From positions 30,594-94,593 of the IMG/VR virus record IMGVR_UViG_3300032237_000561: 64,000 nt of DNA, one strand, 5' to 3'. Origin of the DNA: a virus (taxonomy: Duplodnaviria; Caudoviricetes). Shown in pieces: positions 28,634-35,742 of this stretch. The notes beneath the pieces are model-generated. The model did no database searches. It saw only the letters and a program-made list of their open reading frames with translations, and had not been told where the DNA came from. The translations under genes and the position numbers were made by a program. Every line of letters begins with the position of its first letter. Position 1 is the stretch's first letter.

Positions 28634-29126
28634 TTTCGGGTCGTCCCAAGTCGACAATATCGGTGAGTAAATGCAGCTTGACCTGGGGCAGCGCGTGAGT
28701 AGGTCCGTGACCAAGATCAGTAAGTGTTGACTTGTCTAACAGCTCCTGCGCTTCGGCATAGCCGACAAAATTAACAATGTTTTCCCGAACAATCGCCAAG
28801 ATATAAATGTCTGCCGGATTCTGCGCCTTCTTAGGGGTCGCGAGCAGACGACCATCTGTTCGGGTAGTCGCCTTGATGTCGATACGGATACCGTCAATCA
28901 CCGAATCAATGCTTCCGCTACGGGGCTTGACTCCGAAATCTGGATAAGTGTTAGTGGCCTTGCCCCAGGCCATCTCGGCCACCATGCCGGTCATCTCAAG
29001 CTCAATGGCCTGATGGTTTTTGTCAAGCCTCCGGTCGATGACACTCAACGACTGGTTGATACAACGCCGCATAGTCGACATGAAATGAACAACACCCATT
29101 TCGCTGGGATTAAGTTCGACAATCAT
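28623..29126 (-). CDS. Hypothetical protein, possible PD-(D/E)xK nuclease fold; lower GC than neighbours
   Basis: TAATG coupling to the helicase; AE...ID...IDIKAT. Confidence 0.6.
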   Translation of the reverse strand: MIVELNPSEMGVVHFMSTMRRCINQSLSVIDRRLDKNHQAIELEMTGMVAEMAWGKATNTYPDFGVKPRSGSIDSVIDGIRIDIKATTRTDGRLLATPKKAQNPADIYILAIVRENIVNFVGYAEAQELLDKSTLTDLGHGPTHALPQVKLHLLTDIVDLGRPEIMV

Positions 29127-30988
29127 TACGGTGCCTCTCCGAACAACAGCCATTCCAGGTTGTGGTTCTCATCGCGGGTGGAAAGGTCACCATAACTAAG
29201 TTCTTCTTGAGTTCCTTGCACCGCTGCGGCGAGTCGCCGACGATTTTCGCAGGTCTCCCACACCCGCTCCTCGACCGAGTCCTCGGTGATGAGGACGTAA
29301 GCCGTCAGGCCGTCCAGGTGGGAGTCGGCGCGGTCGATGCGGGCGTTGCGTTGGGCCAGGTCGTCATAGCTGTAGGTCGGGTCCACGTTGATCACGTAGC
29401 GGGCCTCTTGCAGGTTCAGGCCGTGGGTCCCGGCATCGCTGGAACAGAAGGCGGTGATGTTGGGGTCGGCTTTGAACCGGTCCTGGGCGCGCTGAGACTC
29501 TTTGGCCGACTGGCCGGTCCCGTAGTGCAGGACGTGCGGCACCGTGAGATGTCGGGCCAGCGGCAGCAGACCCAGCTCGGTCCAGTGGCAGAAGACCACC
29601 GCTTTGTCCTGGCCCTCCCGGATGTCGTCGAGGAGACCGTTAAGGACCTCGATCTTGGAGCTGTGCGCTGCATCGAGTAATTCAGGTCGCTCGGCGAGAA
29701 GCTCGGCGGCTTCAGGAGATGAGCTGTGCCGCAATGCTTCTGGGTTGATGCAGGCGATCCGGGCCATCAGATAGAAGGGGGACAGACCCTCACCGTTGCG
29801 GTGAGCGATCCGGGCCTTGGCGGTGATGAGGTCGAGTAGCTCACGGGTGCCAGGTGTCGCCTGGACCGAAACCTCCAGTGTCTCAATGCCTTTAAACTGT
29901 TCCCGAACTCCGGGGTCGGTCTTGCGGACCGCCATCGTCCGGTCCCCGACCCGGTGTCGGACCTCTTGGAGCTTGGTGAGGTTCCAGTCGTAGGTGGTGA
30001 AGGAGAACTGCCCGCCGCTCTTGGTCCGTACCGGGACGCTGTTGACCCGGTCGGCGTAGCGGGAGATGAAGTCGGTCTTGGTCGACAGCGGGTTGCGGGC
30101 CGGGCGACCGTCGAGGGAAAAGACATCCCTGAATCTCAGCGGATTGCCGCCGACGACGGTCGCCGACATCGGCCACACGGTGGCGGTACAGGCGGCGGTC
30201 AGCCGGTCCAGGGCCATCCTGGCCTTGTTCTGCCCGTTGTCGGTAATCAACTTGTGACCCTCGTCGAGGACCCACAAGACACGACGACCGAAGGTCAGGG
30301 CGGCGATCTCCTCCTCGTCGTGCCACAACTTTTCGTAATTCATGACAAAAACCTGGTGCGGATCGTCATACCCCTTACGACGCTTGGCCTTGGTCCCGTC
30401 GTTGATCACCGCATCCAGACCGGCGGGGTTGACGAAGGTCCGGCGCAGGTTTTCCTTGAGCTTGCTCAGGGTGCAGGCGATGACGAGGTCGATGTCGTCG
30501 GAGTCGAAGAGGGCCTTGGCGGCGGCACCGGAAGTGAAACTCTTTCCGGCACCGGCAGACCAATTCCAGAAGTACAGCCGGTCGGGGCTTTCGGTGCCCT
30601 GACGGGCACGCTCCAGGGCACGATTGAGGGAGAAGGTCTGAAAGGGCCGGAGCGTGTATCCCTCGATCTCCAGGGGCTGTGACCAGCGTTCTATATCAGA
30701 TTGGATATGAGCGGTCGAGGGGGTCCAGAAGACGTGGTAGCCGTCCTGGCCCAGGAGGTCGGTGAATCGACGAGCGAGGTGAACCTCGTTGAGGATCAGG
30801 TGACGGGACATCCAGTCCTCGTAGGAGCCGTAGAACAGTCCCCGAGCGGTCGCATCGAGCGGCTCAAAGCTCAGGTATCCGGGGTAGTCGGGGTGTTCCT
30901 CGACAAGGATGATCCGGGCCGGTGGGATGCCCGAGTCCAAAAGGTCGGCGACGCGCTTCTCCACGTCATCCAGGGTGGGTAACGACAT
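29126..30988 (-). CDS. SF2 (SNF2-like) helicase
   Basis: AGAGKS, DEGH, SAT and GLNLQ...QRNARIDR motifs. Confidence 0.9.
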   Translation of the reverse strand: MSLPTLDDVEKRVADLLDSGIPPARIILVEEHPDYPGYLSFEPLDATARGLFYGSYEDWMSRHLILNEVHLARRFTDLLGQDGYHVFWTPSTAHIQSDIERWSQPLEIEGYTLRPFQTFSLNRALERARQGTESPDRLYFWNWSAGAGKSFTSGAAAKALFDSDDIDLVIACTLSKLKENLRRTFVNPAGLDAVINDGTKAKRRKGYDDPHQVFVMNYEKLWHDEEEIAALTFGRRVLWVLDEGHKLITDNGQNKARMALDRLTAACTATVWPMSATVVGGNPLRFRDVFSLDGRPARNPLSTKTDFISRYADRVNSVPVRTKSGGQFSFTTYDWNLTKLQEVRHRVGDRTMAVRKTDPGVREQFKGIETLEVSVQATPGTRELLDLITAKARIAHRNGEGLSPFYLMARIACINPEALRHSSSPEAAELLAERPELLDAAHSSKIEVLNGLLDDIREGQDKAVVFCHWTELGLLPLARHLTVPHVLHYGTGQSAKESQRAQDRFKADPNITAFCSSDAGTHGLNLQEARYVINVDPTYSYDDLAQRNARIDRADSHLDGLTAYVLITEDSVEERVWETCENRRRLAAAVQGTQEELSYGDLSTRDENHNLEWLLFGEAP

Positions 30989-31008
30989 GATGTGTAGAGA
31001 CTACAGGA

Positions 31009-31782
31009 TCAGAACGGGTATCCATAGCGACTGGCGGTGATGTGATCGTCACGAAGCCCGTGATCCATGATCGGGTTCCAGTCATTTCCGTAATGACTGA
31101 AGTCGTCGGACTCTTCGGCGTTGTGCGGCACTCTGAGGTCTCGTATTGTCAGCGGGGCCTTCTTATGCTTGAGCATGACTTCGTACTCGTGGTTGAAGTT
31201 TCCAGACCCGGCACGGTTGTGGTTTTCACCGGCATGATTCCAGTCGGCATCAAGGAAGGTCGGCAAGTACCGCCCGTACCCGGAAGAGTTGTATGACCCT
31301 TCCCCGATCCCTCGACCGTAATTGTCGGCAACATCAAAGTCGGTACTCCAATGCTCCCCGGTGCCGCCCTTGGCCCTGAAACCGTCCAGAATTGCGTCGG
31401 CCAGTCCGGGGTGGTCGAACTCGCCGCCCCGGTCGTCGTAACGGATGTCAGCATCGGGGAACAGTCCAGGGTCATCGACCGGCTGGCCCTGGCCGTAGGT
31501 CATCTGCCAGACCTTGCGGAAAGCCGGGTCGTGAGTGTCAATGGGAACGCCGCGCATCAGGCGACCGACCTCACCCTTGACCTTTTCCATACCGGGAAGG
31601 GTCGGCTGGGGTAGCCGTTCTTTGCCGGAAAACTCAGAGTTTTTGGGACGAGATGCCCACTCGGCTTGGGCACCCGGATCGCCCTTGATTTTCTTCTCGT
31701 AATTTTTACGATCCCTGGTCGGGCCATGAGTCCACGGCCCCAGCATTTCTGCTTGCTCGCGGGCGGTGATGATGCGGCGCAT
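31009..31782 (-). CDS. Putative ADP-ribosyltransferase (R-S-E clade)
   Basis: LMRG, HWSTD and HEYEV occur in the canonical order; GGAGG RBS. Confidence 0.6.
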   Translation of the reverse strand: MRRIITAREQAEMLGPWTHGPTRDRKNYEKKIKGDPGAQAEWASRPKNSEFSGKERLPQPTLPGMEKVKGEVGRLMRGVPIDTHDPAFRKVWQMTYGQGQPVDDPGLFPDADIRYDDRGGEFDHPGLADAILDGFRAKGGTGEHWSTDFDVADNYGRGIGEGSYNSSGYGRYLPTFLDADWNHAGENHNRAGSGNFNHEYEVMLKHKKAPLTIRDLRVPHNAEESDDFSHYGNDWNPIMDHGLRDDHITASRYGYPF

Positions 31783-31838
31783 GAAACGACCTCCTGCTGA
31801 TTCAAGGCGGTCATGGCCGACACGGCAGGGGGAGGGTG

Positions 31839-31867
31839 TTGCACCCCGAATGACACGGGTGTAACTT
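31839..31867 (+). promoter_or_regulatory. SigA-type promoter
   Basis: TTGCAC-17 nt-TAACTT. Confidence 0.6.
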
Positions 31868-31872
31868 GTGGC

Positions 31873-32290
31873 GAAGGCCCCCGACTACAAGAGCCGAGGG
31901 CCTTCACAACTTAATAAAAAACATCCACCAGAGATTTTACCTCACACTCTAAACTGGGTCAAACCCCCAGTCATCTCCCGAGGTCTCCGGTTAACAGCCG
32001 GAAGCAAGAGCCGTCAGAGGGTGTGTCCCTCCGACCCGCCACCCGGCAGCGTTCAAGGCAGACCCGGCGTGCAAGTACCCACGAGGTGGCGGGATATGTC
32101 CGGTTCTGCGGCAGGCGAGTAATACCCGTAGCCGACAGTGACGCGACGACCCTGCGGGCAGTGAAATACCATAAGGAACCCCAGGACTCGGTAAACGGAC
32201 GGGGGTCATTCCCTGTTGTTTCGCGGTGCTGTTCCTGCTAGTGCAGGGACAGCTCTGCTCTCCCCTTCCTGGTGCCGGATCAGGGGATGA
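31873..32290 (+). ncRNA. Candidate large structured RNA
   Basis: Eight consecutive helices found by eye; no credible ORF; promoter directly upstream. Confidence 0.55.
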
Positions 32291-32331
32291 AAAGACCAAA
32301 GAAACATCAGAGATGCTGTAGTGTGACCCAC

Positions 32332-32715
32332 ATGCAAGTCAAGGATGAACGTCTCTGGCTAGAACAGCTCTCGGAGCTGAAGGCCGATGAGATGAGCCAG
32401 AAGTTCTCCGATTTCCTGGTTTTCTGGGGTAATACTGCCGACACTATGCTGGGCGAGAGCAATGAAGATTTACAGCCATATGATGCGGTAAGCAAAGCCT
32501 TTGAGGTAGCCGAGCAAACTTTTGGCTTCCTGTCGGTCGAGTGGCTAGGGCAGATGCTCCTGGTGATCATCGAGCACTGGTTCCAGGGCGATTGTCTGTG
32601 GGATTCGCTGTCGTTGTTCGAGCGTCGTATGGTCGAACAGGCGACCGCCTTGAAGATCGTGGAGATGCAGAACCTCGCCGCCGAGAGTGTGCCGACACCA
32701 GCGGAAACGCCGTAG
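32332..32715 (+). CDS. Hypothetical protein (probably leaderless)
   Basis: ATG lies 7 nt after TGTAGTGT. Confidence 0.7.
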   Translation: MQVKDERLWLEQLSELKADEMSQKFSDFLVFWGNTADTMLGESNEDLQPYDAVSKAFEVAEQTFGFLSVEWLGQMLLVIIEHWFQGDCLWDSLSLFERRMVEQATALKIVEMQNLAAESVPTPAETP

Positions 32716-32781
32716 TTTGACTTTGTCTGGGCTATAGCTTATTCTGGTGATACCACCCACTGAGACGAAAGAAGTGATCAC

Positions 32782-33510
32782 ATGACCAAGCCAAACAAGA
32801 ACCTCGCCCCCAACGAGATCATCGCGTTGCTGAAGAAGCACGACAAGAATCTCGTCAAGGCCATCCTCAAGGAGGTCGACACCGCTGCCGCTCAGGAGAA
32901 GAGCGGTAACAACGTCGAGCTGCGGAAGGCGGCGATGCAGAAGGCCCTCAAGGATTCCAACAGCATCGTCCTGGCCAAGTACACCGAGGCCGCGAATGAC
33001 CTGATCCCGTTCGGCCAGAAGCTGTCGGCCAACGGCGACCGGATCGTCTCTGAGGGTCTCGACGAGAACGAGGTCGTCACCGCGATGGAGCTGTACCTCA
33101 AGGTCAAGCTGACCACCGAGGGCGCGGATGCCATGAAGGACATGGTCCGCAACATGGTCTTCCGTTCGATGGACTTGGCTGCCGCCGAGCAGGGCGAGGA
33201 ATTCCCCGAGCACACCAACATGGTGATGGACGTGCCCGAGATCGGTAAGCGTTTTTGCCGCGAAGGTGCGGGCCGTAAGGATGCCGAGTTCGACATGGAC
33301 GCGCTGCGCGCTTCTGTCGGCGATGAGGTCTTCTTCGCCATCACCACCGAGAAGGTCGAGGTCACCCGTGTGGTGGACGACCAGGCCCTCTCGGTGGCCA
33401 TCCTGGCCAACCCGCAGATCATGGAAAAGATGCGGGACGCGGTCGCCCCCGGTGAGTGGAAATCCGCTCGCCTGATGGTCCGGGACATCCCGGCCAACGA
33501 GAAGGAGTAA
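32782..33510 (+). CDS. Hypothetical protein
   Basis: Upstream TTGACT...TATTCT promoter; strong codon bias. Confidence 0.85.
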   Translation: MTKPNKNLAPNEIIALLKKHDKNLVKAILKEVDTAAAQEKSGNNVELRKAAMQKALKDSNSIVLAKYTEAANDLIPFGQKLSANGDRIVSEGLDENEVVTAMELYLKVKLTTEGADAMKDMVRNMVFRSMDLAAAEQGEEFPEHTNMVMDVPEIGKRFCREGAGRKDAEFDMDALRASVGDEVFFAITTEKVEVTRVVDDQALSVAILANPQIMEKMRDAVAPGEWKSARLMVRDIPANEKE

Positions 33511-33513
33511 CAG

Positions 33514-34122
33514 ATGAACGACAGCGACACTATTGTCGAGGTCGTGGATCACACTACTGATCGCCCCGTTTTTAGCGAACGGGGCGATCAGCCTGTCCAC
33601 GCCGAAGAAGACGAAAAACCCACCAAGCCGAAGAAGCCCCGTAAGCGTAGGAACCCCCGCGCCGCTGATGAGATGAGCGACGAGGAGCTACTCCGCGATG
33701 CCGGGGTCGAGCCGATCTTCTCGACTTCTGAGGCGGCGGAATTCTTCGACCGGAGTAACCAATGGCTTTACTGGGGTCTCCGGGAGCAGGTCTTCACCGA
33801 GGCCGACGGGACCCCCATCGACCCAGACCGGATCGGTCACCCGGTACGCGGTCGGCGGCGTTTCACGATCCCGTTGCTCCGGGAGATCATGAAGTCGAGC
33901 TACCGACGGGGCAACCTCGACAGCGAGCAGCTGACGACCATCATGCGCCGGATCAAGTTCGCCGAGCAGGGCGTGGAGTGGCGCGAACGGGAGGGCTGGA
34001 ATTACACCCACCTGGGCCGTAACCGGTACCGGTGGCTCAAGCCCGAGATGACGGTCTGGAACTCCAAAGCCGGGGAGTGGAACCTGCACCCCGACGTGAA
34101 GCTCCGTAGCCACACCGACTGA
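33514..34122 (+). CDS. HTH DNA-binding protein (MerR/excisionase-like)
   Basis: FSTSEAAEFFDRSNQWLYW...GRRRFT. Confidence 0.7.
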   Translation: MNDSDTIVEVVDHTTDRPVFSERGDQPVHAEEDEKPTKPKKPRKRRNPRAADEMSDEELLRDAGVEPIFSTSEAAEFFDRSNQWLYWGLREQVFTEADGTPIDPDRIGHPVRGRRRFTIPLLREIMKSSYRRGNLDSEQLTTIMRRIKFAEQGVEWREREGWNYTHLGRNRYRWLKPEMTVWNSKAGEWNLHPDVKLRSHTD

Positions 34123-35279
34123 TGACCGACCCGCAGGAAGCCCTACGTCGGGTGATCGAGACGGACGTGCTGGGGCCGCGACTGAGAGATCAGATCGCGG
34201 TCCTGGCATTGTCTGCCGATGATCCCCTGCCGGTCGCCCGCGCCGATCTTTTGTATCTGTGGGACGACTACCACACCGAGATGCTGGACTTCGCGATGAC
34301 GGTCAGCCCCTTGGGTCACCGTCATGCCCCCATCATCGGGACCCTCATCGAGCACATGAACCATTACGGCTTCACGGCCCCTCAGGGGCAGCATGCGCTT
34401 CGTTGGCCTGTCCTGTACGCCAAGGACATCTCTGACAGCTTCTCGGGGCCGTCAGAGGCCCGCAAGGTGCTGTTCTGTGAGGGTTCCCATGAGGCAATCA
34501 GTCAGGCGGTCCTGTTGGCCCGACATCACACCGAGAGGTTTGAGACGGCGGTCCTCGACACCGGGTGGCACGACTGGCTCCCCAGCCGTCAGCTGTTCTC
34601 CTACGACGACTGGAACCGGGTCGACTGGGCACGGTACGGGGCACTGGTGATGGCCCCGGTCGACAGCTCTTACGCTCAGGTCCCTGCGGCCCGTGAGTGG
34701 ATGATGAGTGCCCGGACCGCCGGGGTCCCGGTCATTATGGACGAGACCGTCACCGGCTTCGGTCGGACCGGATTGCTGTGGGGCCAGGAGCACATCGGCA
34801 TGGTGGCCGAGATGACCGTCCTGGGTGGCCCCGTCGGTGGCGGTCTGCCTCTGGGTGCGGTGGTCGGTCTGCCGGATTTCTTCACCAACACCGAGGTGAT
34901 GTCGCGGACCGGTCCCCTGGCCGGTCACCCGTGGGCCTGCGCCGCCGGACAGATCACCCTGTCCGCGATCCATGCCGGGGTCCTCGAACATGTCGTCGAG
35001 TCTGCTGCGGTCCTCTCCACCGCCCTGGACGGTCTCCAGGGGCAGTTCCCGGACCGGATCACCGGACACCACGGTGTCGGGCTTCTCCGGGCGATCCGTT
35101 TCCATGACCCGGACCGCGCCGCCGCGCTCCCCCTCGCCGCCCGCGCCCACGGCCTACATCTGCCACCGGCGGTCGGGGACACGGTCCTGCTGGCCCCGGC
35201 CCTGGTATCGAGCACCTACGAGGTGACACGCGGGGTCGACCTGATGGCTGCGGTGCTGATGTCCTGGGAGGATAGCTGA
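34122..35279 (+). CDS. Class III aminotransferase-fold protein lacking the Schiff-base Lys
   Basis: DETVTGFGRTG and GGGLPLGA are present; Gly occupies the expected Lys position. Confidence 0.8.
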   Translation: MTDPQEALRRVIETDVLGPRLRDQIAVLALSADDPLPVARADLLYLWDDYHTEMLDFAMTVSPLGHRHAPIIGTLIEHMNHYGFTAPQGQHALRWPVLYAKDISDSFSGPSEARKVLFCEGSHEAISQAVLLARHHTERFETAVLDTGWHDWLPSRQLFSYDDWNRVDWARYGALVMAPVDSSYAQVPAAREWMMSARTAGVPVIMDETVTGFGRTGLLWGQEHIGMVAEMTVLGGPVGGGLPLGAVVGLPDFFTNTEVMSRTGPLAGHPWACAAGQITLSAIHAGVLEHVVESAAVLSTALDGLQGQFPDRITGHHGVGLLRAIRFHDPDRAAALPLAARAHGLHLPPAVGDTVLLAPALVSSTYEVTRGVDLMAAVLMSWEDS

Positions 35280-35313: not shown

Positions 35314-35742
35314 ATGACAGTAATTGTGGTGCCACAGTGGACAGAGGACGACGACGTGAGCCGAACCGGCGATATCGACATCGGTCTTGAGTCTGATCAG
35401 ATCATGCAGCGGTACCTGGTCCGTCGGATTTTCCGTGAGGTCGAGTTCAAGGTCAAAGAGTCCGATGGGCAGATCATCGTCGGCTATATCACCGGATTCG
35501 ACGACAAATGTCTACAGATGTCGACGACCCCCGAGCATGAGGCCGATGAACCGCATTCGGTCCTGATCTTCTGGCCGGTCGCCAAGATCGAGGAGACCGG
35601 TCGTCGACTAGAAGACCTGGAGCATGAGCACCGTTCAAAAATCCGAAGCTACAGCCATGCGCTCAAGTCGCAGTGCGAGTCGGTACTGACCAATCGCAGT
35701 TCACAGCAGAATCGGAAACGCGACACCGCCACCCTCACCTGA
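35314..35742 (+). CDS. Hypothetical protein (possible Sm-like fold)
   Basis: GGAGAG RBS; IVGYITGFDD. Confidence 0.7.
   Translation: MTVIVVPQWTEDDDVSRTGDIDIGLESDQIMQRYLVRRIFREVEFKVKESDGQIIVGYITGFDDKCLQMSTTPEHEADEPHSVLIFWPVAKIEETGRRLEDLEHEHRSKIRSYSHALKSQCESVLTNRSSQQNRKRDTATLT

Follow-up and report, generated by a model that had tools for sequence, protein, structure and literature searches.

A predicted family of structured non-coding RNAs in an exchangeable slot beside the replication operon of uncultured relatives of Bixzunavirus phages

Cluster A mycobacteriophages L5, D29, and StarStuff carry an abundant, stable, and toxic non-coding RNA (ncRNA) beside the early lytic promoter Pleft (PMC5712189). 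The intergenic gap described here resembles the Pleft RNA locus in its actinobacteriophage setting, in its ~0.4–0.5 kb of non-coding sequence directly downstream of a promoter—here a predicted one—that heads early genes, and in the lack of a conserved ORF. The phages with the Pleft RNA are temperate siphophages, whereas those considered here are relatives of large myophages with a predicted RNA. GOLLD and ROOL of phages and prophages and the raiA motif of Actinobacteria are likewise long multi-helix ncRNAs with conserved unpaired nucleotides, were found comparatively, and are often phage-carried. It is rare for a large structured RNA to have invariant loops, and such RNAs have often proved to be ribozymes, sensors, or the cores of RNA–protein machines. 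ColE1 RNA II and the T4 origins oriF and oriG feature, as predicted for the gap, a promoter-driven structured transcript at the edge of replication genes, the fold of which would matter. The pRNA of phi29 is a phage-encoded structured RNA from an early promoter, with relatives very different in sequence, and in this it is like the RNA of the gap. In the switch of the temperate coliphage 186, the promoters pR and pL face each other with starts that lie tens of bases apart, an arrangement shared by the two facing promoters predicted here, P1 and P_L (~55 nt).

The window—the whole stretch of 64,000 nt analyzed here, positions 30,594 to 94,593 of IMG/VR record IMGVR_UViG_3300032237_000561—is part of a 94.6-kb viral contig with a completeness of 62%. 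As judged by protein similarity (30–45% identity), the nearest cultured relatives are mycobacteriophages of the genus Bixzunavirus, of ~150 kb, and large Gordonia and Rhodococcus phages; the phages that carry the RNA termed type A below are related to these myophages. The gap spans 31783–32331 (~550 bp) and is bounded by two start codons, the ATG of a leftward ORF of 257 aa and the rightward ATG at 32332. The rightward operon begins with a Tad4-like gene, which is followed by genes for DUF7242, DUF7229, a class III aminotransferase, a phage Hfq, a DnaC-like loader, DnaB, primase, a DnaJ-domain protein, and Pol III alpha. A preliminary description had placed the gap at the head of the replication module of a myophage, which is fair given the DnaC/DnaB/primase/Pol III genes of the operon and the nearest cultured relatives. 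It read the gap as an undescribed ncRNA of ~420 nt with eight or nine helices or, alternatively, as an R-loop/primer RNA marking the replication origin, and proposed an Rfam covariance-model scan, folding energies against shuffled controls, and a comparison of syntenic gaps in relatives as checks. No tRNA or tmRNA genes were found by ARAGORN in the window or in the whole 94.6-kb contig, and recognizable lysogeny genes are absent from the window. The features of the locus are listed here by window coordinates and strand.

29126–30988, leftward (−): SF2 helicase gene.
31009–31782 (−): 257-aa gene of no known family, from the ORF list; homologues exist, and neither Pfam nor PHROG gives a match.
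31839–31867 (+): candidate rightward promoter P1, TTGCAC (31839–31844), 17 nt, TAACTT (31862–31867), from sequence; start predicted near 31873.
31873–31905 (+): hairpin H1, the predicted 5′ end of the RNA, from an inverted repeat, folds, and compensatory changes; common to type A and type B loci.
31906–31974 (+): variable A+T-rich linker with a small hairpin at 31953–31971; weakly conserved and partly deleted in loci L006 and L025.
31934–31962 (−): predicted leftward sigma-70-like promoter P_L, TTGACC, 17 nt, TAAAAT, from the promoter scan; faces P1.
31975–32294 (+): type A core, a predicted structured RNA of ~320 nt, from the match to covariance model R1, covariation, strand bias, and the lack of a coding signal.
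31986–32002, 32013–32035, 32035–32093, ~32102–32146 (UAAUAC loop), ~32150–32184 (conserved 20-nt loop), 32228–32253, and ~32257–32288 (+): predicted helices of the core.
32317–32334 (+): predicted leaderless-type promoter P2 (TGTAGTGT, 7 nt), with the start codon ATG of the Tad4-like gene, from sequence; TAGTGT at 32319–32324.
32332–32715 (+): Tad4-family gene of 127 aa, the first of the rightward operon (Pfam PF25186, E = 3e-23).

The gap is non-coding. No ORF is shared among its homologues, in which stop-free stretches vary in frame and strand and resemble G+C-rich noise. The variable columns are distributed over the three codon positions without periodicity (30/32/34, p = 0.88), the indels between homologues measure 1–2 nt, and the three ORFs of the window that fall into the gap have no Pfam or PHROG match. 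The earlier statement that the gap holds no credible gene was hence borne out over 31783–32331, where no coding signal was detected.

Relatives of the locus were obtained via the contigs of metagenomic homologues of the 257-aa and Tad4-like proteins. Twenty loci, numbered with the prefix L, have a common layout of a leftward gene, a gap of 430–580 bp, and the Tad4-like gene. The gaps are of the following types.

Type A: the window, L006, L008, L009, L019, L020, L021, L022, L025/26, L034, L035, and the diverged, truncated L012.
Type B: L004, L010, L013, L016, L017, L023/24, and the diverged L033.
Type C: Bixzunavirus, in Mycobacterium phage Alice at 100,768–101,199 (L014 2569–3000) and in Bxz1 at 103,657–104,017.

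Types A and B have the first ~100 bp in common, which contain promoter-like hexamers and H1, and are unrelated beyond H1.

Eight type A cores were used to build the covariance model R1. On the window core, R1 scores 359.6 bits (E = 1.9e-111), and it matches 10 further metagenomic phage loci; with 143–370 bits, the core is found in L006, L008, L009, L012, L019, L020, L021, L022, L025/26, L034, and L035. Every copy of the core sits upstream of a Tad4-like gene, and the phage's own 94.6-kb contig carries one. Pair counts were taken from an alignment of 11 type A sequences fitted to R1, with the structure predicted on the + strand. Standard pairs make up 96.9% of the cells of this alignment. Double-sided changes occur in 13 of 85 pairs compared with 6.2 ± 1.3 in shuffles, none of 500 shuffles reaching 13, and sliding the 3′ partners by 1–3 columns leaves only 1–4 of them. 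The number of independent changes is low because seven of the 11 aligned sequences are >85% alike. In the diverged copy L012, the long helix is made of a different sequence, CCAGGUGG/CCACCUGG in place of CCCGCCACC/GGUGGCGGG. As judged by this comparison, at least seven helices of the core are maintained by compensatory changes, and the proposed look at syntenic gaps has thus supplied both further type A loci and covariation above that of shuffles. A covariation search for pseudoknots in type A gave no supported additional helix.

The + strand is indicated as the RNA strand by the excess of G-U over A-C cells in the type A alignment (105 versus 7); G-U pairs had already been named as a sign of RNA in the preliminary description. 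In line with this, several type A pairs switch between G-U and G-C or A-U and are mismatched if read on the opposite strand. The consensus energy shows a slight preference for the same strand (−113.7 on the + strand, −108.5 on the minus strand). Folding is better than in shuffles, but moderately so: for 31873–32300, z-scores of −3.39 (+ strand) and −2.38 (minus strand) were obtained, and for the core alone one of −2.37. The main support for the fold is therefore covariation, not folding energy. In addition, the core evolves more slowly than the neighboring genes, with DNA identities among loci of 85–93% in the core and of 68–93% in the flanking genes, and with DUF7242 protein identities across the same loci that range from 50% to 95%. 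The unpaired segments AAGGCAGACC, GUAAUACC, CAGUGAAAUAACAUAAGGAACC, and CUCUGCUCUCCCCUUCC are nearly invariant among type A copies, which points to contacts beyond simple pairing.

The conserved unit consists of H1 and the 320-nt core with a variable linker between them, and replaces the continuous structure of ~420 nt first proposed. Six of the nine helices drawn originally hold. H1 shows compensatory changes in L006 (A-U to G-C) and L004 (G-C to C-G), and the helices at 31986–32002, 32013–32035, 32035–32093, 32228–32253, and ~32261–32287 are supported by comparison among type A loci. Two others were mis-paired. The strands of CTGCGGCAGG/CCTGCGGGCAG are not complementary, and the conserved fold features at this place the hairpins at ~32102–32146, with its UAAUAC loop, and ~32150–32184 (CCCUGCGGG...CCCCAGG); the second of these hairpins also takes the place of GGAACCCC/GGGGTCATTCC. 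The remaining helix, ACTGGG/CCCAGT at 31953–31971, lies within the variable linker, which is partly deleted in L006 and L025, and is not conserved.

Type B has a fold of its own with 14 double-change pairs, compared with 4.0 ± 1.5 in shuffles and 3–7 in slid controls. Its consensus energy clearly prefers the + strand (−72.8, against −52.4 on the minus strand), and a type B example folds with z = −0.6. Whether its filters are at their defaults or switched off, R1 matches neither type B nor type C, and the model R2 does not match type A. On the Bixzunavirus gap, R2 gives a local match of 7 bits (E = 0.19) to one hairpin only, so that homology of type B and type C is unproven. Upstream of the Tad4-like gene, 205 Bixzunavirus genomes have ~430 bp without annotation at the equivalent place, which are ≥99% identical in 191 of them. 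This gap folds with z = −6.4 compared with shuffles and ends in the run GGGAGGGGGGUUUGGGGGGAGGGG; it may encode an RNA, in phages that are cultured and tractable.

The type of RNA is not predicted by the similarity of neighboring proteins. The DUF7242 protein is 92% identical to that of the window in L023, a type B locus, and 50% identical in L025, a type A locus. The promoter module of the type B-like L033 is nearly identical to that of the window. This independence from the neighbors, together with the common promoter module of the window and L033, suggests that the slot is a recombination cassette, and the slot indeed behaves as an exchangeable one by this sequence comparison. Gordonia phage RedWattleHog and Rhodococcus phage Finch have nothing in the slot; in both, a gap of 40–60 bp precedes the same, retained replication operon. 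In Gordonia phages Skog (725 bp; L028 1715–2439) and SCentae (275 bp; L027 936–1209), the slot holds other unannotated sequence, which neither of the two RNA models nor Rfam matches.

Three promoters, P1, P_L, and P2, are inferred at the locus. The TTGCAC-17-TAACTT sequence reported in the preliminary description is present at 31839–31867, and its arrangement, TTGCnn-16/17-TAAnnn, recurs at an equivalent position in each of the 15 related loci examined, of types A and B. Its agreement with the E. coli consensus is limited to 6 of 12 positions, and the promoter consensus scan did not report it. The P1 sequence occurs once in the window, and alignments show P1 together with H1 to be retained in 15/15 loci. 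A hairpin at +1 is a typical 5′ stabilizer that protects RNA ends. P_L lies in the linker, is the sole promoter-like site found by the scan of 31500–32600 (1.1 kb), and agrees with the consensus at 10 of 12 positions; a −35/−10 pair is present at its position in 11 of 15 related loci. P_L probably drives the 257-aa gene, since this gene is preceded by a Shine-Dalgarno sequence and there is no space for another promoter. The transcripts predicted from P1 and P_L overlap by ~55 nt including H1, and the face-to-face arrangement predicts transcriptional interference as well as this short antisense overlap. The leaderless promoter that had been assigned to the next gene is also found: TAGTGT at 32319–32324 is followed by 7 nt and the ATG, a Shine-Dalgarno sequence is missing before this ATG, and the motif TGTAGnnT-N7-ATG/GTG is kept, including its spacing, in most relatives. 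A short module, GTGTTaCCCCAGATAGAG and variants thereof, can be appreciated between the RNA core and the Tad4-like gene in L008, L006, L010, L023, and L025, in types A and B alike; the window, L019, and L034 lack it. A regulator might bind there, or the module could provide the −35 region for the leaderless promoter.

Rfam 15 (4227 models) was run on 31000–33200 at E up to 10 and gave no + strand match inside the core; the best scores anywhere in this region are 12.7–25.6 bits at thresholds of 35–90. The models covered include RNase P, tmRNA, 6S, SRP, riboswitches, GOLLD, ROOL, raiA, pRNA, YrlA, and small ribozymes. The type B, type C, and Gordonia phage loci have no Rfam match at E up to 1. 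By blastn, the window gap has no DNA match in 50,697 phage records; searches of phage records with it and with a type B gap gave nothing beyond a chance match of 38 nt. Exact-motif scans for type A gave no hit in viral contigs, one in metagenome contigs (L012, in the same context), and none in genome contigs, and no carrier of type A was found among cultured phages. The corresponding scan for type B retrieved only the three known viral contigs and nothing in bacterial genomes. A literature search found no description of the type A RNA, and no public RNA runs are listed with the window sequence. Type A is, by these comparisons, a real, conserved family of structured ncRNA that is not in Rfam and was previously undescribed. 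The suggestion of an undescribed phage ncRNA thus finds support in the non-coding status, in an evolution slower than that of the flanks, in compensatory changes, in the G-U bias, and in the lack of any match in the Rfam scan that had been proposed for it.

Individual identities and partners were considered and rejected. A P4-like pairing of bacterial RNase P RNA, which can be traced by eye in type A (GUCCGG/CCGGC) and in type B (AGUCCGCC/GGCGGGCU), is uncompensated where it is broken, namely by G to A changes in L006 and L012 and in the diverged type B locus L033, and no RNase P model of Rfam matches. A tRNA-like anticodon arm, also drawn by eye, with a 5-bp stem and the loop UUAACAG, is supported neither by the variation in other copies nor by ARAGORN. 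Antisense targets elsewhere in the contig amount to matches of 10–13 nt, which is chance level. The phage Hfq was dropped as an argument for a role as its partner RNA, since RedWattleHog and Finch have Hfq without the gap and Skog and SCentae have gaps without Hfq; across five cultured relatives, the presence of Hfq does not track the RNA slot.

Compared with the known systems, the type A locus features several differences. The Pleft RNA has no detectable relation to it in sequence or structure, with R1 and R2 reaching ≤4.1 bits on L5 50500–52297 with filters off. Unlike the Pleft locus, the type A slot holds alternative unrelated RNAs and has a facing convergent promoter. The 320-nt core is shorter than GOLLD and ROOL, does not lie beside tRNA genes, and is not matched by their Rfam models at E up to 10. 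In contrast to the ColE1 and T4 systems, origin features (iterons, a skew turn, a conserved unwinding element, and a consistent G-rich tract) were not found, and there is no evident overlapping antisense regulator as in ColE1 RNA I except the P_L leader, which overlaps H1 only. The pR/pL region of coliphage 186 has no counterpart of the 320-nt structured core; the window has no recognizable lysogeny genes, and P1 and P_L are predicted promoters. The pRNA model of Rfam is unmatched, and the phages with pRNA are small and replicate by protein priming; types A and B, for comparison with the divergent relatives of phi29 pRNA, have no common fold as judged by covariance models.

The reading that we favor, and consider probable, is that the gap encodes the type A ncRNA, which occurs in uncultured phages of ~150 kb, as a discrete early RNA. 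Rightward transcription would proceed from the conserved P1 (31839–31867), and the RNA would begin with H1, a 5′ stem of the end-protecting kind. It would be early, discrete, and stable, and would end no further downstream than the leaderless promoter that precedes the Tad4-like gene. The invariant unpaired segments, through which the RNA would act, may, with low certainty, be sites at which a protein binds or tertiary contacts form. With similarly low certainty, the RNA might be a scaffold or a decoy in host takeover—compare the Pleft RNA of cluster A mycobacteriophages. A protein-binding action in trans is a tentative proposal as well, drawn from analogy and from the conservation of the loops. 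Transcription from P1 would run head-on into P_L and could damp the leftward genes.

An RNA made from P1 could also serve the rightward early/replication operon in cis as its 5′ leader. Transcripts from P1 would then continue into the Tad4-like, DUF7242, and later genes, and the structure would govern read-through, processing, or stability of this mRNA as an attenuator, a put-like antiterminator (HK022), or a 5′ stabilizer; this is a possible, though rather unlikely, explanation. The element always lies directly upstream of the same operon, and H1 at +1 resembles a typical 5′ stabilizer. The hairpin at 32228–32253 is followed by a C/U-rich tract and not by a U tract, and no clear intrinsic terminator was found between the core and the Tad4-like gene, so that the RNA may be a leader that runs into the operon; a canonical terminator is likewise absent at this place in type B loci. 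In the window, only ~25 nt separate the last helix from the P2 −10, which leaves a poor −35. Against a leader stands the start of the Tad4-like gene, which has no Shine-Dalgarno sequence and a leaderless-type promoter, likewise conserved, at a distance of exactly 7 nt from the start codon: such a gene needs no leader and could hardly be translated from one. In addition, 320 nt is far above the size of known attenuators and put-type RNAs, the invariant loops suggest more than a simple on/off hairpin, the cis-regulatory families of Rfam give no match, and in RedWattleHog and Finch the same operon works behind a gap of 40–60 bp. The empty slots of these two phages, which keep their replication genes, also weigh against a replication origin, at which the P1 transcript would persist as an R-loop or primer (as for ColE1 RNA II and T4 oriF/oriG) and its fold would govern hybrid formation. 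This second suggestion of the preliminary description is improbable. The region does lie between the divergent SF2 helicase gene and the operon of DnaC-like loader, DnaB, primase, and Pol III alpha; P1 is followed by an A+T-rich stretch (31906–31950), types B and C have G runs close to the 3′ end, and the exchange of the slot as a cassette, to which no protein variation is coupled here, would be open to a self-contained cis element. However, there are no iterons or repeated boxes other than two-copy repeats at chance level, the locus shows no turn in cumulative GC skew, the purine content of the 3′ tail is inconsistent (0.46–0.66) without a consistent G-rich 3′ tract, the A+T-rich linker is not conserved, and an R-loop has no need of invariant loops.

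It is highly improbable that the gap has no functional RNA at all and that DNA-level signals, such as overlapping promoters and regulator sites, or recent recombination explain its conservation, with helices that arise by chance in G+C-rich DNA. The modest folding z-scores, a minus strand that folds nearly as well, the close relation of most type A copies, and the two or three promoters that the region does contain would fit this explanation. Promoters, however, take up <100 bp compared with a core of 320 nt, and this core is conserved where the flanking proteins have diverged to 50–80% identity. Double-sided changes exceed all shuffles and slid controls in two independent RNA types, L012 keeps its helices with a different sequence, and G-U cells are far more frequent than A-C cells. 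A bolder version of the favored reading, which we regard as unlikely, takes the slot as an exchange site for RNA effectors, in which unrelated structured RNAs of ~300 nt (type A, type B, and perhaps type C) would be swapped among related phages because each binds or mimics a fast-evolving host component. If so, these would be RNA-based factors of host takeover or anti-defense beside a protein anti-defense gene, a class of phage weapon undescribed at such a size.

On the favored reading of a discrete type A ncRNA, the RNA would sit at the control point between two early transcription units in phages that are widespread among soil and freshwater actinophages. Type B in sister phages and the foldable gap of Bixzunavirus suggest a general RNA layer in the early program of such phages. 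The proposal provides a link to the unexplained abundant and toxic early RNA of L5 and D29, and the counterpart of the type A slot in Bixzunavirus is accessible in phages of Mycobacterium smegmatis.

The genes on both sides of the gap bear features of their own. The frame of the Tad4-like gene is open upstream as far as GTG 32272 and ATG 32287; this extension is probably untranslated, since the Pfam match and all homologues begin at ATG 32332. The genes for DUF7242, DUF7229, and class III aminotransferase (32782–35279) form an operon that is kept between the phage of the window and Bixzunavirus. The Hfq-like gene of the same operon lies at 35314–35742 (+) and matches PF23874 with E = 6e-42; Actinobacteria are regarded as being without Hfq. 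On the leftward side, the 257-aa gene is a variable accessory, the place of which is taken at other loci by unrelated ORFs of 147, 188, or 212 aa or by none. Homologues of its protein (59% identity) are encoded in a different context in L002 (5001–5858) and L007 (1538–2401), where they directly follow an endolysin (Peptidase_M23/Amidase_2) and a holin. This position beside lysis genes, together with its exchange or absence in sister phages, points to a mobile accessory gene that is perhaps linked to lysis.
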